Shown here piece after piece: positions 1,133 to 10,283 of a stretch of 10,283 bases of DNA. Positions within the stretch are counted from its first letter, which is position 1. Each line of letters begins with the position of its first letter. The position numbers were made by a program, and so were the translations under genes. The notes below the pieces were generated by a model. The model was not told the DNA's origin and made no database searches. It saw nothing but the letters and a program-made list of their open reading frames with translations. This DNA is from a virus (Duplodnaviria > Heunggongvirae > Uroviricota > Caudoviricetes): positions 1 to 10,283 of IMG/VR virus record IMGVR_UViG_3300030000_000409. The stretch is one strand, 5' to 3'.

Positions 1133-1560
1133 CACATAAAGCAACATTTTTCGTTTTCACTGATACATCATCACAACTTTCCACAAAAGGCATTGATCAA
1201 TTTGTTTCTGATTTAAAAAGTCTACATCACAATGTTAACGTTGAAGTGATAGATTTTCTATCTGCATGGAATCTTGGTGTTCTTTTTGAGTGCTTAGATA
1301 GATTTACAAATATTACATGTGCTTATCTGGGGTGTGTAAAATTCGCAAATAATGAAAAGTCATCATATTTACCACCAGATGAAATAGAAATCAAATTAGT
1401 AAAATACTTCAAGAGCAGGAATATTCCTACTATTCGTATAGAAAAAGATACATTAAGTGATTATTCCATTATTGAGATGCCTCAAGAATACATTCAACAT
1501 AGAATCATACATCTTAGAGAATCATCAATTACAACATTCATCACCACGTTCTTAGGCTAA
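1129..1560 (+). CDS. Hypothetical soluble protein, 143 aa
   Basis: The ATG overlaps the SSS stop (ATGA at 1129-1132), which implies translational coupling. No family motif was recognised. Confidence 0.7.
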   Translation: MTHKATFFVFTDTSSQLSTKGIDQFVSDLKSLHHNVNVEVIDFLSAWNLGVLFECLDRFTNITCAYLGCVKFANNEKSSYLPPDEIEIKLVKYFKSRNIPTIRIEKDTLSDYSIIEMPQEYIQHRIIHLRESSITTFITTFLG

Positions 1561-2606
1561 TCTGCTGAATACAATTTTGTGTCATTATCCCAGTAAATCT
1601 GTTGAATCCCATAATGTCTATTTCTTACAACATTATAAAGAGAACCAACTTTTACTTTTACTGCAAGATATTCACTCCATGATGGGTGAATTTTCTGTAT
1701 AAATGATCTCAAAGCAAACTTATAGGAATTTGCAGCAGGTGTTTCATTGAATCTTTTAAATGATTTTAGCATACTGATTTGTTGAAATCTTTCTGTGTTA
1801 AAAAATGTTTCAAAAGCACTAAGCTGTTTATGAGAAATATTATTTCCTGATTCGAATACATTCGTAAAGCAAAGTGTTCTTAATGAAACACTCTGCCATT
1901 TACATGTGAAATTTATCCACCATAAAAGGTCACTCATTTTTGTGAGTTTGAATGGGGCTTTGGTGATAAGTGAATTTAGTGAATCCATAAAATTAATTGA
2001 AGGATTCAATCCCAATGTAGATAAATACGATGAAATATTTTCATCAGAAATTAATCCATTTAGTAGCATCGGCATGATAGTTGGAAGTTGGAATATTTTG
2101 TCTGATCCAAATAACTGATCTGCATTCTCGCCCATTAGATAAATCGTGTCATTGAAATTCAAACCATTAAGACATTCATGTACATTTACCGTCTTATATT
2201 TTAGAACAATATCCCACCAACATGAAAGATTTTCATACATTGCATCTACTGATGTTGCTAAAGTTATCTGTTCTCTATCGAATCCTTCAGTCATTATGAG
2301 ATGGTTAAAAGCAACTAACAATCCGGTACTATCTAATCCTCCACTATAGAAAAGCGTAAGAGGTTTACCAGTTTGAAGCAATGACCTAGCACGACGAATC
2401 ATTTCATCAAAGAACATTTTGTCTGAGTCTCCATCATCTATCTGTGTTGGTATCTCCCAAACAATATGAGTGTTAAATGGCAATGTAAAACTATTAGTTC
2501 GATCCATAGCACTTGCATTTTTACCAACTAAATTCAGAAATGCTTTAGCTTCTGACATATGTTCATCATTTAGAACTCTAGGCATATAGTAAATTACTTT
2601 TTTCAT
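1557..2606 (-). CDS. Asparagine-synthetase-like PP-loop ATPase (AANH superfamily) without a glutaminase domain, about 349 aa
   Basis: PP-loop LFYSGGLDS (SGGLDS at 2328-2345), AsnB-like GENADQLFG (2106-2132; compare GEGADELFG) and C-terminal K..LR. The start is re-placed at ATG 2606 (MKKVIYY), which forms an ATGA overlap with the upstream stop. The track's 2651 start would overlap the upstream gene by 49 nt. Confidence 0.8.
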   Translation of the reverse strand: MKKVIYYMPRVLNDEHMSEAKAFLNLVGKNASAMDRTNSFTLPFNTHIVWEIPTQIDDGDSDKMFFDEMIRRARSLLQTGKPLTLFYSGGLDSTGLLVAFNHLIMTEGFDREQITLATSVDAMYENLSCWWDIVLKYKTVNVHECLNGLNFNDTIYLMGENADQLFGSDKIFQLPTIMPMLLNGLISDENISSYLSTLGLNPSINFMDSLNSLITKAPFKLTKMSDLLWWINFTCKWQSVSLRTLCFTNVFESGNNISHKQLSAFETFFNTERFQQISMLKSFKRFNETPAANSYKFALRSFIQKIHPSWSEYLAVKVKVGSLYNVVRNRHYGIQQIYWDNDTKLYSAD

Positions 2607-3214
2607 ATTAGACCAATTCCACCTGATATTACATTGACACTCTTTTTCCATTTCTCATAATCATCTTCATTGTCAACAGATAATAAGGATTTACAATGAA
2701 GCCATATGGCCATCTTACGGTGTTTATAAATGTTAAGGATGCTTTCCTTTTCAATTTTGAGTTGGTGAATAGCATCAGTTAAAATTAGCCCTACTGCTTC
2801 ACATAATTGAGGTGCCAAATCTTCAATATTAGGAAACATTTTTAAGTCATCTAATGTAAGAAAATATCCATTTGATGCAATGCCCAAAGTTCTACGAGTG
2901 ATATTAAAATTCACATACTCATATCCTCTACTTAGAAATTTTGCCTTGTTTCTTCTAATGTTATTATTTGACGTATTTGCATTTTCAGTTTTTACAAATT
3001 CCTCATTTATCCAACAAAATCTACCATTTAGAATTTGATTATCATTATCAACTTCATTTAAGGACATGAGTGCTTGGTTCCATTTATTAGTTGATACAGA
3101 AACTAAACGAGTATCTAATATGTTACTGTGTAGAAATTGTCCTATATCAGAATTTTTGGGTAGAGCAATTATCGCTCTACTGCCGGCATCATGCAGTATA
3201 AATTTCACATCCAT
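2603..3214 (-). CDS. Hypothetical protein, 203 aa
   Basis: Coupled on both sides: TAATG overlap at 3212-3216 and ATGA overlap at 2603-2606. No recognisable motif. Confidence 0.75.
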   Translation of the reverse strand: MDVKFILHDAGSRAIIALPKNSDIGQFLHSNILDTRLVSVSTNKWNQALMSLNEVDNDNQILNGRFCWINEEFVKTENANTSNNNIRRNKAKFLSRGYEYVNFNITRRTLGIASNGYFLTLDDLKMFPNIEDLAPQLCEAVGLILTDAIHQLKIEKESILNIYKHRKMAIWLHCKSLLSVDNEDDYEKWKKSVNVISGGIGLI

Positions 3215-4095
3215 TAAAGAACCTCTTTGGGCACCACTGATAATAACACATCAAATTTTGCTGAATATTTTGTTGATAAATGTTTTCTAATATCAGCGTT
3301 GAATTGTTTTCCGACCACTGTATCCCAATTGGTAGTTTTTTCTGTGAATATAAGTTCTTGACCCCACTCAGCCTCTATCATTTTTTGATTGCTGAAATAT
3401 GGATATGCTTTGGTTAGTAACGGACTATCCCATACCGTTTTTATGAGTTCAATACTAGATGAGTGGAAATAGTAATCACCATCTAAACCTGATTTTTTTG
3501 AATGAAGAAGATATGCTATTTCTGTACTTGAGATAGGAATTCCAAAGCCCGTGTCTGTACTAGATAGAACAGAATATGATTGTCCATCCTTATTTATATC
3601 GCCTTCTCCTATGATGATATGTCTATCAGCAGGAATTTTATCAAACATAAATGGGACAACAAGATATGTTGGTTTAAGTATTCTCGTTAGTTCAAATGAT
3701 GTTTCAGCAAAAGCAACCACATCATCTTTATTGAGCGTGATAATGTTAACTGGTGTAGAAAGAGCGGCTGATACTTTATTGACATTTTCTATCATATAGT
3801 CATTGATGCCAGGAATGTTCAAAAAGTACATTTCAAAATCAATGTTTAGTTTTTTACATTGGATTGCTATAATTTCACTATCTTTACCAGAAATGAATAC
3901 TGCTAGTTTATTTTTTCCAGAAGACACCAATGCATTCAACCTATTATTGATAGCAGTTTTGTAACTATCTGCGGGCGTAGAACCTGCAACACCAGTATAT
4001 GAAAATTTAAATACTGGCTTAGGTGATAAATCAGTGTATCCGGCTTCATCAACACCATTTATTGACCAAGAGATGTGTGGTAATTTGTTAAACAT
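3214..4095 (-). CDS. Divergent AANH/PP-loop-like protein, 293 aa
   Basis: A beta-strand is followed by SGKDSEII (SGKDS at 3877-3891), a one-residue-short version of SGGxDS. A later IIIGEGD resembles the AsnB GEG motif. There is a good RBS (AAAGGA) upstream. Confidence 0.65.
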   Translation of the reverse strand: MFNKLPHISWSINGVDEAGYTDLSPKPVFKFSYTGVAGSTPADSYKTAINNRLNALVSSGKNKLAVFISGKDSEIIAIQCKKLNIDFEMYFLNIPGINDYMIENVNKVSAALSTPVNIITLNKDDVVAFAETSFELTRILKPTYLVVPFMFDKIPADRHIIIGEGDINKDGQSYSVLSSTDTGFGIPISSTEIAYLLHSKKSGLDGDYYFHSSSIELIKTVWDSPLLTKAYPYFSNQKMIEAEWGQELIFTEKTTNWDTVVGKQFNADIRKHLSTKYSAKFDVLLSVVPKEVL

Positions 4096-4120: not shown

Positions 4121-4567
4121 TTAGATAAACTTCATGACTCGTATATTCTCTTTAGAGAACCCTGTTGTTTCAATCTCCCCAAATGTGGTGAACCCATATC
4201 TAAGATAGACGTTTAATGCAGGAATTTTTGGATAGCTCCATAGAATTTTTGAACCATTCCATATTGCTTTAGCTTCTATCCCAGCAAATAATATTTGTGA
4301 TATGCCTTGTTTTCTATATTCCGGGTAAACAAAAATACCTCTCACCCTAAAATCTGTATCAGAAGATATGTGACCAGATATGACACCGAGAACGGTATCA
4401 TCGTCATGATACTTTAAAAAATATGGTACTGCTTTTTTGATGATTTTGTCATGACCACCATTGCGACACATTGAGTTAACAGGTTCAACATCTTCTCTAC
4501 CTGGCCAAAGTTCATTCTGCCATATTGGTTTTATTTCTTCCCATGTACAATTTGATAATTTAAACAT
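4121..4567 (-). CDS. GNAT-family N-acetyltransferase, 148 aa
   Basis: Acetyl-CoA binding motif A (RGIFVYPEYRKQGISQILF) and C-terminal ALNVYLRYGF. The start is re-placed at ATG 4567, preceded by GAGGT at 4572-4576. The track's 4720 start would overlap the divergent gene. Confidence 0.88.
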   Translation of the reverse strand: MFKLSNCTWEEIKPIWQNELWPGREDVEPVNSMCRNGGHDKIIKKAVPYFLKYHDDDTVLGVISGHISSDTDFRVRGIFVYPEYRKQGISQILFAGIEAKAIWNGSKILWSYPKIPALNVYLRYGFTTFGEIETTGFSKENIRVMKFI

Positions 4568-4676
4568 CTTGACCTCTAAACGTATTTTGTATTTATTAAT
4601 GTTTCCGTTAAACGTGATCTGATCTAGATGAAGGTAAATAAGATTACACAATTTTCCATACAATTTATAATAGCAA
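4568..4676. promoter_or_regulatory. Divergent promoter region between the minus-strand and plus-strand operons
   Basis: This is the only intergenic gap over 25 nt in the window. On +, TATAAT at 4666-4671 with ATTACA (4/6 match to TTGACA) at 4643-4648 and a 17-nt spacer, 5 nt before ATG 4677 (leaderless-like). TAAATA cores on - (4590-4595) and + (4635-4640). AT-rich DNA makes chance matches likely. Confidence 0.4.
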
Positions 4677-5528
4677 ATGATAAACGTTTTATGCACCAGT
4701 AAGCCCGTAGATGGGCTCATGTACTACAGTTATGAGTACACATCTTATTTGAATTCTATCGGTATATCTGCCCAAATGGTGATAATCCGTCATAGAAATT
4801 TCAATCATGAGGCATATCTTAATGCCATATCTCACAAGTATATTCATTGTAAAAATGTAGTGTTTGAATATGCTTCAATTAATGATGAAGATGTTACGCT
4901 GATCATGGGTCGCAGTATGATGACGCTATCTTGGTTTAATTTCAAAGACTATAATCATCGAGAACAGAAAATATTAAAACGATTATTTTCAAATAAGGTC
5001 ATTGCTGTTTATTCTGAAAATCATCCAATAGATTATGTCAATGCATTGAATTTTTATGCACCATCTAAAATCGTTGATGTGTGTGACTATGAGGTTTATC
5101 CACGCGGAACGGGTGAACATTTTGAAAAGAGAATAAATTTCGAAATTTACAAACCATTCGAAGACAAGATTCAATTCAAATATTTGTTCATGGGAACAAA
5201 TGATAAATATTATGCAACTGCTGAAAAAGTAATTAAATGTTTTCCTGATCATGGAATATTGACATATGATGAAAAATATATCAATCCATCTAACAATAAT
5301 GTTTTTGTGCCAATACAAAATCTTTTAGGTATTTTTGACACATACATTTACACAAAAGAAACATTTGATCCAGCCCCAAGACTCATACAAGAATGTAAAT
5401 ATTATGGGAAACCAATTTTATATCTTAGAGATAAATGTATCACGGATGGTGGAAGTGTTTACAATAAACGCCCCATCAAATCTTTAGACGTAACAGCCAT
5501 TATCAATTCAATTATTAAACTTGTATAA
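4677..5528 (+). CDS. Divergent GT-B-fold glycosyltransferase-like protein, 283 aa
   Basis: The C-terminal FDTYIYTKETFDPAPRLIQECKYYGKPIL (5337-5417 from the first D) aligns by eye to the GT4 signature D.fv.ps..EgfglvllEAma.GkPvi, giving DX7E. FMGTNDK resembles the F.GR...K donor-binding loop. Confidence 0.55.
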   Translation: MINVLCTSKPVDGLMYYSYEYTSYLNSIGISAQMVIIRHRNFNHEAYLNAISHKYIHCKNVVFEYASINDEDVTLIMGRSMMTLSWFNFKDYNHREQKILKRLFSNKVIAVYSENHPIDYVNALNFYAPSKIVDVCDYEVYPRGTGEHFEKRINFEIYKPFEDKIQFKYLFMGTNDKYYATAEKVIKCFPDHGILTYDEKYINPSNNNVFVPIQNLLGIFDTYIYTKETFDPAPRLIQECKYYGKPILYLRDKCITDGGSVYNKRPIKSLDVTAIINSIIKLV

Positions 5529-5530
5529 CT

Positions 5531-6319
5531 ATGAAAATAAAAGATATCGAATTATTCCCAGATGAGGTAATGACATTAATTGACTCACAGGAATTTATAG
5601 GAATTCGTTTAAGTGGTGGAAGTGATTCAGCATTACTATGTCATATAGTATTGAAATATTTCCCTCATATAGAATTGCTACCAATCATAATGTTTAACAG
5701 ATTGAGACCAGCAGCAGAACAATCAGTTAAAAACGTATTAAATGCGCTCAATGCACTTAACCCCAATAATAAACTGATGACTCCAGAAATAGGATATTTT
5801 GATACTACTGGATGGCCAAGTTATATAGATGGAGTCAAACAGAAAAATCCAAAAATGATTTTTCAGCCTGAATTTATTAGAAGTGTGTTTGCCAAATATG
5901 ACACTAAATTAAACTTTATTTTGTCTGGTGAGACATTGAATCCACCTATCGAAGATCAAATTGTGTTAGGCGTTGAACAAAGATTTGTTAAAAATAGAAA
6001 TTTAAAGCGTATTAATTTATGTCATGAGTATGATGTTAATGGTGTTACTAAATGGGAGTATAGTCCATTTAGAAATTCTAATAAAAGAGAAGTAGCAGAG
6101 ATTTATAAAGAATTAAACTTAATGGAGAGTTTGTTCCCATTAACAGAAACTTGTGAAACTGAACCTCATGTTTATGAAATTTTTGGTGTTGATAATAATA
6201 TAACCTACACAGCTCCAGGAATTGAACCATGTCAATGCTGCTGGCCTTGCAGAGAGAAATATTGGGCATATGGGGTTTTTGATTTCAATACTAAAAATAG
6301 AACAACACGACTAAAATGA
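5531..6319 (+). CDS. QueC-like PP-loop ATPase with C-terminal Cys4 zinc site (probably not a true QueC)
   Basis: IRLSGGSDSA (SGGSDS at 5612-5629), SPF...NKREV, and TETC (Cys at 6152) followed by CQCCWPCREK (6230-6250, CxxCxxC). The canonical QueC motifs YGQRH, VPxRN and YPDC are not seen. Confidence 0.75.
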   Translation: MKIKDIELFPDEVMTLIDSQEFIGIRLSGGSDSALLCHIVLKYFPHIELLPIIMFNRLRPAAEQSVKNVLNALNALNPNNKLMTPEIGYFDTTGWPSYIDGVKQKNPKMIFQPEFIRSVFAKYDTKLNFILSGETLNPPIEDQIVLGVEQRFVKNRNLKRINLCHEYDVNGVTKWEYSPFRNSNKREVAEIYKELNLMESLFPLTETCETEPHVYEIFGVDNNITYTAPGIEPCQCCWPCREKYWAYGVFDFNTKNRTTRLK

Positions 6320-6600
6320 AACTCATACCAAAATGTCTAAACTTTGATTCACCTGACAGGAAACCAGCAGCATATACATCTGATGGATTTATGTTACCTT
6401 GTTGTTGGGTAGATACCCCATATGAAGATGAATCATTAAAAGCTCTTGGGATGAGAGATGAAGAGTTGAAGGTTGCTAATAATGAGAGTTTGATACAAAT
6501 TTTTACATCTGATCAATGGGAAAGATTTTTTAATGTATTAGTACATGATTCTGATTCGGCACCTTTCGCGTGTAAGTATAAATGTGGGGTAAAAGAATAA
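6316..6600 (+). CDS. Stand-alone SPASM/Twitch-type iron-sulfur binding domain, 94 aa
   Basis: Pattern C7 ... DGFMLPCC (C29, C30) ... N.ESLIQIFTS..W ... C86KYKC90, typical of radical SAM auxiliary-cluster domains. ATGA overlap with the upstream gene. Confidence 0.75.
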   Translation: MKLIPKCLNFDSPDRKPAAYTSDGFMLPCCWVDTPYEDESLKALGMRDEELKVANNESLIQIFTSDQWERFFNVLVHDSDSAPFACKYKCGVKE

Positions 6601-6605
6601 TTGAT

Positions 6606-7337
6606 ATGACTAGAATTACAGACGAATACGTAAAGCGACAGCAATTTTTAAATCCAAATCTTGATATTTCACATAGGTGTATCATCAGATGCCCGTTATG
6701 TATCAGACAGAAAATGATAAGTCAAAACAAAATTAAACGATCTTTTGATATTGAGGAAAAAGATTTCCGTAAAATTTTAGATTTTTATGTTAAAGATATT
6801 GCTTTCTGTGGACAAATTTCTGATCCAATTTATCACCCAAATTTTCTATCATTTTTAAAAATCTGCAATGATACCAATAGACAAGTCAGAATTTCCACCA
6901 ATGGAACTGGTAAAGATTTAAAGTGGTGGGAAGAAGCTTTTAGTTATGGTAAAAGTAACAATGAATGGTGGTTTGGAGTAGATGGCATAGATAATAAAAG
7001 TGAACTGTATCGTGTCGGATCTAATTTTGAAAATGTGTGGGAGATGATGAAGCTTGGGAAAAAATTAGGCAATGTCATTGTTTGGCAATTCATCATTTTT
7101 AAATATAATGAACATGAGATAGATGAAGCTATAGAAATTGCTAAGCGTGAAGGATTTGCATTAAAATTTGTAAAATCTGATAGGGTTTTTAAGCTAAATA
7201 AATATGAACTTAGAAAGGGTGTAAAAGTAGATTTATTACAGCCATCTACTGAACATTTATCTGATAGGATAAAAACTGAATATTGGGGTAATAAAACTCC
7301 TGAATTGGATTCTTGGGATAAAAAACGTAAAATTTAA
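6606..7337 (+). CDS. Radical SAM enzyme (core domain only, no C-terminal SPASM cysteines), about 243 aa
   Basis: CIIRCPLC (6678-6701), FCGQISDP in the GGEP position, STNG and FGVDG motifs. There is no Cys in the C-terminal half. The start is re-placed at ATG 6606, 5 nt after the upstream stop. Confidence 0.88.
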   Translation: MTRITDEYVKRQQFLNPNLDISHRCIIRCPLCIRQKMISQNKIKRSFDIEEKDFRKILDFYVKDIAFCGQISDPIYHPNFLSFLKICNDTNRQVRISTNGTGKDLKWWEEAFSYGKSNNEWWFGVDGIDNKSELYRVGSNFENVWEMMKLGKKLGNVIVWQFIIFKYNEHEIDEAIEIAKREGFALKFVKSDRVFKLNKYELRKGVKVDLLQPSTEHLSDRIKTEYWGNKTPELDSWDKKRKI

Positions 7338-7345
7338 AGGAAAGA
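7335..7345 (+). promoter_or_regulatory. Ribosome-binding site TAAAGGAAAGA for the DegT aminotransferase
   Basis: The AGGA core lies 6 nt before ATG 7348. The 11-mer is identical to the site at 4099-4109. Confidence 0.7.
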
Positions 7346-7347
7346 CA

Positions 7348-8421
7348 ATGATTGCATATGAAGGATGGGATAAGGATTATCAAGAAAATAGACAGGCATA
7401 TTTAGATGCATTTGATAAATTTATGAATCAGTGTAATTATCAAAACACTGAGGCATTTGATAAAGATTTTGCTGAAATGATGGGACGTAAGTATGCTGTG
7501 TCAGTTGCCAGCGCAACAGATGCTTTGTATTTCTCTCTTCTTAGTTATGGAATTGGTGAAGGTGATGAAGTATTGGTGACAGATTTCTCTTGGATTTCTA
7601 CTGCATCATGTATCTCAATGGCTAAAGCCACACCAGTATTCTGTGATATTGATTTAGATTCTTATCATGTGAGTTTGGATAGTATCAAGAGAATGTATAG
7701 TGAGAAAACAAAAGCAATAATCTATACACACTTATTTGGTAGTATGTCAGATATGACTGCTATTAAGGATTTCTGTAAAGAGAAAAATATCGTTCTTATT
7801 GAAGATGCTGCACAAAGTTTAGGTTCAAGTCTGAATGGTGTTAAGGCTGGAACTATTGGTGATTGCAGTTCATTCAGTTTCAACACGAATAAAGTTGTTG
7901 CCGGTATTAATGGTGGTGGTGTATTTTTAACTGATGATCGTGCGCAAGCAGATTTAATCCGCAAAATTAGACAACACGGTAAAGGAAATGGATTTGAACT
8001 ACTGGGATATAATTCCAGATTGTATTCACTTAATGCTGAGATCATCAAAATAAGATTACAACAAAGAGAAAAATATCAAACTAAAAGACAACAGGTAGCT
8101 GATACATACAACGCAGCTTTTGAGAATCTAAATGTATTTGTTCAGCGGTCAGAGCCAGGGCTGGTTCACAACTATCATAAATACACTGTTAGATTTGAAA
8201 ATAAAGAGACTAGAGACCGTGTAAAGAATGTATCTGGTGCGTCAGTACATTATGATTGCCCTCTATCTTCAAATCTCATGTATGATAAATTGCAACATCG
8301 AAAAGATAATTGCGTTAATTCAAAACATGTAACTGACACAATACTTTCATTACCTATTCACCCTTGGCTTACTGATGATGAAGTTAATTTCATTATTGCC
8401 AATATCAAAAGTTCATTCTAA
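7348..8421 (+). CDS. DegT/DnrJ/EryC1/StrS-family PLP-dependent sugar aminotransferase, 357 aa
   Basis: VASATDAL, EDAAQSLG (PLP-binding Asp153), SFSFNTNK (Schiff-base Lys182 at 7891), GYNSRL and LSLPIHP. RBS AAAGGA at 7336-7341. Confidence 0.93.
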   Translation: MIAYEGWDKDYQENRQAYLDAFDKFMNQCNYQNTEAFDKDFAEMMGRKYAVSVASATDALYFSLLSYGIGEGDEVLVTDFSWISTASCISMAKATPVFCDIDLDSYHVSLDSIKRMYSEKTKAIIYTHLFGSMSDMTAIKDFCKEKNIVLIEDAAQSLGSSLNGVKAGTIGDCSSFSFNTNKVVAGINGGGVFLTDDRAQADLIRKIRQHGKGNGFELLGYNSRLYSLNAEIIKIRLQQREKYQTKRQQVADTYNAAFENLNVFVQRSEPGLVHNYHKYTVRFENKETRDRVKNVSGASVHYDCPLSSNLMYDKLQHRKDNCVNSKHVTDTILSLPIHPWLTDDEVNFIIANIKSSF

Positions 8422-8423
8422 AA

Positions 8424-9236
8424 ATGCCTATAAAAAATATCCATGAGTACAATGCATTAAACTATCGCACTGTTGATTTTTATCTAACCAAGTCATGTAA
8501 TAAGTCTTGTCACTATTGTACAGCATGGACAATAGAAATGAGAAACTTAACAGTTGATATGGACTTCCTTAGAAGGGTTGTTAAATACCTAAGTCCATAT
8601 AAAACGAGAATTTGTTTATTGGGTGGAGAACCAGGTCTTGTTAAAAATCTCGATGAGGTTATTGCTGAAATTAGAAAGTACCCAAATCTTGTAGTCCAAG
8701 TCATGTCTAATTCTTTGATTAGAAAATTCTATCCTCACGTCCTTGAGGATCCAGAAATACTTTATATTGAACATCTAGTCTTAGATTTTCAAGAAGACAA
8801 GATTGAGAAGCTTGGAAATTATGATTTCTTCGAATTGAATGATTTCAATAACTACAATCTTATTATCAAAACTCCAAATTATTTCAAACATAAAGAGAAT
8901 TTTGATATATCTTATTTAGATCACAAAAACACGATTCTAAAAGAATACAATTCTAGATCACCAACTTATGATGTAAAAGATTTAACATCAGAAGCAGATA
9001 GAAGAATGTGTGCTAAATTTCCATTAGTACCCGTATTCGATTTTGAACTTCAAAAGCTTAGACATTGCAGTAGGAAAGTCATCAATGGTTCTAGACAGTT
9101 TGACATCACTGAAGAAAATGTTAACAAAATGATGAATTATGAACTCTTCGAGTTCGAAGATTATTGTAGAGTTTGTACTGAAACAATTCCACCAGTTGCT
9201 GCTGAAAGAATTATCAAATTTATGAAGCAAATGTAA
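8424..9236 (+). CDS. Radical SAM enzyme with fused Twitch-like auxiliary cluster domain, 270 aa
   Basis: CNKSCHYC (8496-8519) and LLGGEP. Four C-terminal Cys codons at 9009, 9066, 9165 and 9174 give C-x18-C-x32-C-x2-C. Confidence 0.88.
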   Translation: MPIKNIHEYNALNYRTVDFYLTKSCNKSCHYCTAWTIEMRNLTVDMDFLRRVVKYLSPYKTRICLLGGEPGLVKNLDEVIAEIRKYPNLVVQVMSNSLIRKFYPHVLEDPEILYIEHLVLDFQEDKIEKLGNYDFFELNDFNNYNLIIKTPNYFKHKENFDISYLDHKNTILKEYNSRSPTYDVKDLTSEADRRMCAKFPLVPVFDFELQKLRHCSRKVINGSRQFDITEENVNKMMNYELFEFEDYCRVCTETIPPVAAERIIKFMKQM

Positions 9237-9240
9237 TCAC

Positions 9241-10283
9241 ATGAAAATTTTTTCGATAGCTCTTAACATGCATGACCACAATACTTATGATGGGGTTGTG
9301 CATCGTCAAGAGGAAAGGTACTCACGTAAGAAACACAATCTTGTGCATTCTGATCCACATGATCCATCACTTGCTAGAAAATTCTTTAGTGAACACTTCA
9401 TTCCTAATTTTGTCAATAGGAGTAAAGATACTATTTTTTCTTTTACAGGTTCAAATTTGGGAATAGAATTTGTAGAAGATTTAATTGAGTCAACATTAGT
9501 AGACAAAAAATTTTTAAACTTCAAACCAAATAATCTCTGGGACTATTATCAAACTGATGAGTTCTATTATATTGATCACCATCAAAGCCATGCAGCTTAT
9601 GCATTCTTAAGCTCCGGGTTTAATGAGTCGGATATTTTAGCAATAGATGGTAAAGGCTGGAACTTTTCATGTATCTTCATTGATAAAAATGGAAATATTA
9701 CAGATTTATCTTCTCAATTATCCATAGGAAGTATATGGAACAAAATATCCCAAGAGTTAGGTTTGGGATATTTAGGTGCCGGGAAGACTATGGGATTAGC
9801 AGCATTCGGTAAATACAATAAAACTATTCATGACATTATACTGGAACACATATCATCACTAGATTATCAACAGTTAACAGATTCACTAAATGAAGTGAGT
9901 GATATACCAAAAGAAGATGTGGCATTTACACTACAGTATGTAACTAATGAGTTGGTTAAAAAAATAGTTTATCCTCTAAAAACATCGGATAATATTTGTG
10001 TATGTGGGGGTGTTGCATATAATGGTTACATGAATGAAGAGTTAACAACACGATGGACTAATGTACACGTACCTCCTGCCGTTGGAGATGAGGGGCACGC
10101 AATGGGAACATATATGCATGCAGATTACATGCTAAATAAACATGTTCATATTCCAAGTGTTTATTCAGGTGTTGAACATTCCATCGACACTAATATATTT
10201 CGTTACTTAAAATACCAACAAAAATCATTTGATGAAATTTGTGTTTACGTTGCACACGCTATTGCTAATGGTAAAATTGTAGG
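9241..10283 (+). CDS. O-carbamoyltransferase (NodU/CmcH/TobZ family), 3'-truncated by the window edge; not in the ORF track
   Basis: Open from ATG 9241 to the end: MKIFSIALNMHDH...EERYSRKKH, IDHHQSHAAYAF (9577-9591 for HHQSH), AIDGKG, GAGKTMGLAAFG, CGGVAYNGYMN, VPPAVGDEG. It ends at AIANGKIV(G), where the YrdC-like domain normally begins. Confidence 0.95.
   Translation, partial: MKIFSIALNMHDHNTYDGVVHRQEERYSRKKHNLVHSDPHDPSLARKFFSEHFIPNFVNRSKDTIFSFTGSNLGIEFVEDLIESTLVDKKFLNFKPNNLWDYYQTDEFYYIDHHQSHAAYAFLSSGFNESDILAIDGKGWNFSCIFIDKNGNITDLSSQLSIGSIWNKISQELGLGYLGAGKTMGLAAFGKYNKTIHDIILEHISSLDYQQLTDSLNEVSDIPKEDVAFTLQYVTNELVKKIVYPLKTSDNICVCGGVAYNGYMNEELTTRWTNVHVPPAVGDEGHAMGTYMHADYMLNKHVHIPSVYSGVEHSIDTNIFRYLKYQQKSFDEICVYVAHAIANGKIV

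Follow-up and report, generated by a model that had tools for sequence, protein, structure and literature searches.

Why should a radical S-adenosylmethionine (SAM) enzyme that has no auxiliary iron-sulfur (Fe-S) domain of its own be preceded by a separate small gene that appears to encode one? The question is raised by a virus record from IMG/VR, IMGVR_UViG_3300030000_000409. We analyzed the first 10.3 kb of this 81.6-kb record, a stretch of 10,283 nucleotides (nt) that we refer to as the window. SPASM/Twitch enzymes, in which a radical SAM core carries such an auxiliary domain, account for about 165,000 genes, and the role of the auxiliary domain is still debated (PMC9012708). The two genes in question, of which we call the first tw and the second the core, are as follows, with lengths in amino acids (aa).

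6316..6600, + strand: tw, predicted free-standing Twitch/SPASM-like auxiliary Fe-S domain protein, 94 aa
6606..7337, + strand: radical SAM core, 243 aa, with a match to Pfam PF04055

We consider it likely that tw supplies, as a polypeptide of its own, the Twitch-type auxiliary-cluster domain of the core that begins 5 nt downstream.

The small cysteine-rich protein tw

The tw open reading frame (ORF) runs from an ATG to a TAA and has cysteines at positions 7, 29, 30, 86, and 90. Its start overlaps the stop of the preceding PP-loop gene as ATGA (6316-6319), and the ATG of the core, at 6606, lies 5 nt past the tw TAA in a different frame (6316 mod 3 = 1; 6606 mod 3 = 0). A word-indexed search with tw returned 27 clusters at 90% identity, 94 to 134 aa in length, and no longer relatives; fusions surfaced only in an exhaustive HMMER search of 1.84 billion representatives, which yielded a family of 270 clusters at 50% identity (E <= 1e-3). 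Members are mostly free-standing proteins of 90 to 145 aa (130 of the 148 clusters retrieved did not exceed 145 aa), and 194 IMG/VR contigs encode one. Across 122 diverse members, P28, C29, C86, and C90 were invariant, and P5, C7, G24, C30, D33, S65, W68, and F71 were conserved in at least 90%, in an alignment with a mean column identity of 20%. tw is a real, conserved gene family and not a chance ORF.

The Atlas neighbors of tw were all Uroviricota, and we found no close relatives in 185,579 prokaryote genomes (one per species) in a search with two narrow patterns, which is weak evidence. A tblastn search of tw against 50,697 phage records gave no match; a profile hidden Markov model (HMM) was needed to recognize Mosig_00085, from the cultured Pelagibacter phage Mosig. 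At loci L062 to L066 (4989-5611), two diverged tandem tw genes, encoding 105 and 107 aa, precede a single core.

We then compared tw with known domains. With E <= 0.01 as the limit, 53 of the 122 members matched the Pfam SPASM profile (PF13186), the strongest of them at 8.6e-6; no other family turned up repeatedly. SPASM was also carried by 27 of the 30 nearest Atlas clusters, and fused relatives of tw gave subthreshold PF13186 matches at the same profile positions. SPASM domains begin with the element C-x(9-15)-G-x4-C. The corresponding element of tw is C7-x16-G24-x4-C29, with a first spacing one residue longer and a G-x4-C portion that is kept in at least 90% of members. Together, G24-x4-C29 and the late C-x3-C of tw fit the first half of a SPASM domain, and in the 53 matching members the cysteines occupy SPASM-profile positions. 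A full SPASM domain, which holds two auxiliary clusters, needs seven or eight conserved cysteines, whereas tw has five. These suffice for only one fully ligated cluster, so tw would be Twitch-type and not a full SPASM domain, which narrows the broader SPASM/Twitch label given to it in an initial annotation of the window. That label itself held up, on the PF13186 matches, on homology to the C-terminal domain of fused paralogues, and on the modeled fold of one of them, P0095. Judged by its sequence, then, tw belongs to the SPASM/Twitch kind, as a Twitch-type domain with one predicted cluster.

A pattern of four to five cysteines would also be compatible with zinc, and the tw of the window itself falls under the SPASM cut-off, so we considered whether the protein might bind zinc, or no metal at all, and act as a purely structural lid for the core. 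The placement of the cysteines at SPASM-profile positions in 53 members, including those of G-x4-C, speaks against this, as does the retention of C29, C86, and C90 in every sequence and of C7 and C30 in at least 90% of a set that otherwise averages 20% column identity. We regard a zinc-binding or metal-free lid as very improbable.

For the fold, we turned to single-chain relatives. A model of P0032, a fusion with the tw domain first, was dropped because MAFFT, given unpaired tw-only and core-only rows, put the cluster motif of the core onto the cysteines of tw. We instead modeled P0095, a 348-aa single-chain paralogue with the domain last, from an alignment that combined fused sequences with tw-only and shortened core-only ones and that we had checked. 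The AlphaFold2 (AF2) model had a mean predicted local distance difference test score (pLDDT) of 86.9 and a predicted template modeling score of 0.84, with pLDDT values of 86 to 98 in the tw domain. Its best matches in the PDB according to Foldseek were BlsE, SuiB, SkfB, MoaA, EpeE, anSME, DesII, and BtrN. VIA-align gave Z scores of 18.6 for SuiB (267 residues aligned), 17.3 for SkfB, 16.6 for MoaA (model residues 12-340 on chain residues 3-327), 16.1 for DesII, 15.9 for both anSME and BlsE, and 15.0 for BtrN (model 13-333 on chain 1-238). Since these alignments span the whole length, the match covers the auxiliary domain as well as the barrel, and P0095 is confidently modeled as having a Twitch/SPASM enzyme fold from end to end. 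The fold expected of such a domain, a beta-hairpin with helices that pack against the barrel on its open side, is thereby seen in the model of P0095.

The radical SAM core and its pairing with tw

The ORF listed for the core begins at its first ATG, 6582 (6582-7337). We place the likely start at 6606, because homology to orthologues and to the identical 243-aa entry P0176 begins there. Apart from the start, the initial description of a CxxxCxxC core without C-terminal cysteines was correct: the protein contains C25-x3-C29-x2-C32 as well as C68 and C87, and none of its cysteines lies beyond residue 87 (243-aa numbering). The CX3CX2C motif is invariant in 41 core orthologues, the Pfam Radical_SAM profile (PF04055) matches the core at 34.8 bits against a gathering cut-off of 29.5, and the top NCBIfam matches are all SPASM/Twitch-type enzymes. 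Orthologues of the core form 212 clusters, nearly all of 240 to 270 aa, a length that implies that the auxiliary domain is absent from them. Where a GGE-type SAM-binding motif would usually be found, the core has an invariant FCGQISDP. Its C68 and C87, also conserved, could help to hold the cluster of the partner.

The association between the two genes was scored in both directions. Among 80 loci found via tw, automatic scoring placed the core after tw in 78, and L006 was scored by hand (an over-long ORF call); L079 stops just past tw, and in L031 the core sits in a fusion with a carbamoyltransferase. In all 79 informative loci, the core was the next gene downstream. For the reverse count, 142 viral contigs were found to encode a core orthologue, and 80 loci were kept. 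tw lay upstream of the core in every one of them. In 77 the two were no more than 250 nt apart, and the median gap between the tw match and the core match that follows it, measured end to start, was 17 nt; in the other 3 the distance was about 320 nt. At L145, L156, and L158 (1855-2178, 5463-5741), tw lies about 320 nt before the core without abutting it, and a second tw-like stretch is found 2.2 kb downstream.

The unusual layout is all that would favor a broken gene, an assembly error, or a chance ORF as the origin of the pair. The same arrangement is present on hundreds of contigs from many samples, its key residues are invariant, and each gene has its own start and stop codons, so we give this explanation practically no credence. 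That all 79 loci of the first count and all 80 of the second keep the split likewise bears out the earlier argument that it reflects neither a frameshift nor a sequencing error, and a core of this type was found downstream of such a domain in all 80 core loci.

The two parts occur in four layouts. They are split, with tw first, in the window and most of its relatives. They are fused, with tw first, in P0031 (335 aa) and P0032 (346 aa), where tw occupies residues 1-96 and is followed by a core 49% and 45% identical, respectively, to that of the window. They are fused, with tw last, in P0093, P0095, P0116, and P0143 and in 324- to 433-aa paralogues encoded in the same phage islands; in these island paralogues, the HMM of tw matched the last 95 or so residues at E values from 7e-16 to 9e-8, with the same cysteine pattern. 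Finally, they are split, with tw last, in a second pair at L019 and L020 and in genes 84 and 85 of Mosig. The search for fused homologues therefore recovered them in both orders, as P0031 and P0032 and as the paralogues with a C-terminal domain. The domain-first order noted at the outset does correspond to a separate upstream gene in the window, but it is less odd than it had seemed, as the single-chain P0031 and P0032 share it.

P0031 and P0032 are only 52% identical to each other, are represented on five contigs from two sources, and group as sisters within the clade of the window (support, 97/93). Their divergence and sister grouping indicate that the tw-first fusion has been maintained. 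The main clades of the core tree were well supported (100/99, 100/97, and 98/97), with split and fused forms side by side in the Mosig-type clade. The subclades of the core tree recur in that of tw, and in no case did a tw group with the tw domain of a paralogue encoded on the same contig. This pattern implies that fission and fusion occurred more than once and that each tw stayed with its core lineage. On this comparative evidence, tw and the core each contribute half of a single functional unit, which would work whether joined or not and in either order.

A small cysteine-rich ORF directly before a radical SAM gene, in a clade that holds many peptide maturases, also recalls the precursors of ribosomally synthesized and posttranslationally modified peptides (RiPPs), and SuiB and SkfB rank near the top of the fold matches of P0095. 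tw would then be a cysteine-rich substrate or scaffold that the enzyme modifies. However, the same domain is fused to cores at either end and is modeled as a packed domain, tw has no leader/core organization and no hypervariable region, and the genes around the pair encode sugar-tailoring enzymes and include neither a peptidase nor a transporter. A RiPP-like role is extremely improbable. The readings that we rejected were a frameshift or pseudogene, a RiPP precursor, and a protein that partners exclusively with the QueC-like enzyme encoded upstream.

The sugar-tailoring cassette and other possible partners of tw

From position 4677 to the end of the window, seven genes lie on the + strand, separated by intergenic gaps of -4 to +10 nt. 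The run is tightly packed and on one strand, and tw and the core are therefore probably translated together. The other five genes are the following.

4677..5528, + strand: orf283, a GT4-like compact glycosyltransferase of 283 aa, with no Pfam match
5531..6319, + strand: PP-loop (QueC/TilS-like) ATPase, with a weak match to the TilS N domain (E 0.003)
7348..8421, + strand: DegT/DnrJ/EryC1-family sugar aminotransferase (PF01041, E 1.2e-82)
8424..9236, + strand: second radical SAM enzyme, with its own C-terminal cysteines, unrelated to tw
9241..10283, + strand: NodU/CmcH-type carbamoyltransferase (PF02543, E 2.2e-21), truncated by the end of the window

The assignment of orf283 draws on its Atlas model, which matched GT4 clusters with a template modeling score of 0.69 and is a lead only. 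No second match to the tw profile was found in this genome, including in the radical SAM enzyme at 8424..9236, and no NAD-dependent sugar dehydrogenase or dehydratase was recognizable in the window. Three distinct PP-loop-like genes with SGG-x-DS-type motifs lie within 5 kb of one another, at 1557-4095 on the - strand and at 5531-6319 on the + strand; two of the three have no Pfam match. At the other end of the window, a sodium:solute symporter gene (2-1132, + strand; PF00474, E 2.4e-17) is cut by the contig end and either is cargo of a kind unusual in phages or points to host DNA in this terminal part of the record.

The wider loci tie the core to the same kind of pathway. In L031 (IMGVR_UViG_3300021137_000010, 5267-7639), a 790-aa ORF joins the core to a NodU-type carbamoyltransferase, a fusion that links the core to the sugar-tailoring pathway of the carbamoyltransferase. 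A DegT aminotransferase gene was present within 5 kb in 46 of 80 loci.

Several observations weigh against tw being the Twitch domain of the core. The tw of the window stays under the PF13186 cut-off (14.8 versus 21.5 bits; E 0.037), and an AF2 model of tw alone, based on an 18-sequence alignment, reached a pLDDT of 51, which made it unusable for a fold search. A profile search of PDB sequences with the 122 tw sequences gave no significant match; BtrN appeared only at E 5.6, and amylases appeared, by chance, at E 0.18. The fold model is that of the fused paralogue P0095 and not of the window's own tw and core. The DNA of P0031 and P0032 was not found among viral or metagenome contigs, and their reading frames are thus unchecked. 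Linked genes are in any case expected to give matching trees. Lastly, tw is joined to other proteins. In seven loci from different metagenomes, listed below, it is fused to the C terminus of the GT4-like protein in one 404- to 406-aa ORF, and in P0129 (352 aa, ENA) an N-terminal tw is followed by an unrelated domain of about 270 aa with no Pfam match and a DID motif, which may be another enzyme partner.

About 4150-5372: GT4-like/tw fusion, loci L035, L038, L043, L044, L045, L047, and L055

Because of these fusions, tw may not serve the core alone: the GT4-like protein, tw, and the core may form one complex, or tw may have several partners. They favor, together with the overlap of tw and the PP-loop gene in the window, a reading of tw as a free small Fe-S carrier or adaptor for several cassette enzymes and not as a dedicated subunit of the core. 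The distribution of neighbors argues the other way. The core is the only constant neighbor, in 79 of 79 and 80 of 80 loci, whereas a GT4-like gene lies within 5 kb in 50 of 80 and a PP-loop gene in 41 of 80, at varying positions. The GT4-like gene is directly upstream of tw in most relatives. The PP-loop gene takes that place only in the window and L031 and is elsewhere downstream of the core or absent, which does not support the suggestion, made when the window was first annotated, that tw is shared with the QueC-like enzyme. Moreover, tw is homologous to a domain found in cis on radical SAM paralogues, and the core still directly follows tw in the GT4-like/tw fusion loci. We judge a multi-enzyme carrier to be distinctly unlikely and prefer tw as the auxiliary domain of the core.

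Proposed mechanism and comparison with known systems

The initial annotation had proposed a subunit acting in trans. This remains the best reading and has good comparative support in the homology, the pairing, and the fusions, and the action in trans itself is something that we infer, as are cluster binding, complex formation, and the chemistry of the pair. In the mechanism that we propose, four of the five conserved cysteines of tw would ligate a single [4Fe-4S] cluster, and the protein would dock at the open side of the partial barrel of the core, beside the first strand, the site that the fused domain occupies in single-chain enzymes. Once docked, it would complete the active site and take an electron from the substrate radical. 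The N and C termini of the core chain are both close to the open side of the barrel in solved structures, which would explain why either order is tolerated. There is a precedent in BtrN, whose Twitch cluster has been proposed as the acceptor of the electron of the substrate radical (PMC9012708).

As to the reaction, we tentatively suggest that tw and the core may oxidize a sugar hydroxyl to a ketone, in the manner of BtrN, for amination by DegT, a proposal about which we have more doubt than confidence. It is the most economical guess because DegT is adjacent and the window has no recognizable NAD-dependent dehydrogenase or dehydratase; what points to BtrN- or DesII-like sugar oxidation is the adjacent DegT gene together with fold matches that are not specific. 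DegT would be the likely consumer of the radical SAM product; assembly and decoration of the amino sugar would fall to the glycosyltransferase, the carbamoyltransferase, and the remaining enzymes of the cassette. A further version, in which tw is an autonomous, dissociable Fe-S subunit that takes the electron of the substrate radical, leaves or swaps partners, and bridges the core and the GT4-like transferase, seems unlikely to us. If true, it would make tw the first trans-acting, exchangeable SPASM/Twitch subunit, a single redox module coupling two steps of a phage sugar pathway.

The main interest of the pair is as a natural system for separating two clusters. Elaborate methods are needed to treat the clusters of single-chain enzymes separately (see PMC10337720); with a two-piece enzyme, the catalytic and auxiliary clusters could be made, isotope-labeled, and measured separately. 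The occurrence of the two-piece enzyme across ocean phages, where it is widespread, and its four layouts suggest that the auxiliary domain can fold and work as a module irrespective of where it stands with respect to the core. In addition, names could be given to hundreds of phage "hypothetical proteins," the "molybdenum cofactor" labels in Mosig could be corrected, and the pair would mark an unstudied amino-sugar pathway in phages related to those of SAR11.

Our literature search found nothing relevant on stand-alone, N-terminal, or split SPASM/Twitch domains, and the two-piece layout, although visible in databases, has apparently never been studied, as far as we could find. The closest known systems are the Twitch enzymes BtrN (4M7T), MoaA (1TV8/2FB2), SkfB (6EFN), and BlsE (7VOB), which likewise consist of a core and one auxiliary-cluster domain and with which the model of the fused paralogue aligns over both domains (Z 15 to 17). 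Like BtrN, the window enzyme adjoins a pyridoxal phosphate aminotransferase. The sequence similarity of the window enzyme to any solved Twitch enzyme is not significant, however, and its auxiliary domain is a protein in its own right, with a gene that precedes that of the core, whereas SPASM/Twitch domains have been described as C-terminal extensions of the same polypeptide (PMC9012708). The SPASM enzymes anSME, SuiB, and PqqE (PF13186) also match the fold of the fused paralogue (Z 15.6 to 18.6), but tw has five conserved cysteines and not the seven or eight of a two-cluster domain.

The order seen in the window, Twitch before core, is shared by the NCBIfam family NF033640 (N_Twi_rSAM), in which, according to the name of the model, the N-terminal part is the Twitch domain. 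Residues 22-331 of P0032 align with positions 15-354 of the 398 in this model (E 1.8e-8; 33.9 bits against a cut-off of 170). The core of the window matches positions 182-310 at 27.3 bits, against the same cut-off of 170, and its tw does not match. The window proteins are therefore not members of NF033640, and their two parts are separate genes.

The cassette is shared with the phage Mosig EXVC030M (MT647606, our locus L082), which has the GT4-like gene, the core, tw, DegT, the second radical SAM gene, and the carbamoyltransferase. Mosig_00084 is a core of 211 aa, and Mosig_00085 (112 aa) matches tw at E 4e-25; the record annotates the pair as "molybdenum cofactor biosynthesis enzyme" and "hypothetical protein." Mosig_00083, also annotated as a molybdenum cofactor biosynthesis enzyme, is a homologue of the GT4-like protein. 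Mosig thus splits the core and tw as the window does, but it has them in the order core then tw, and its core is 35% identical to that of the window and belongs to another clade.

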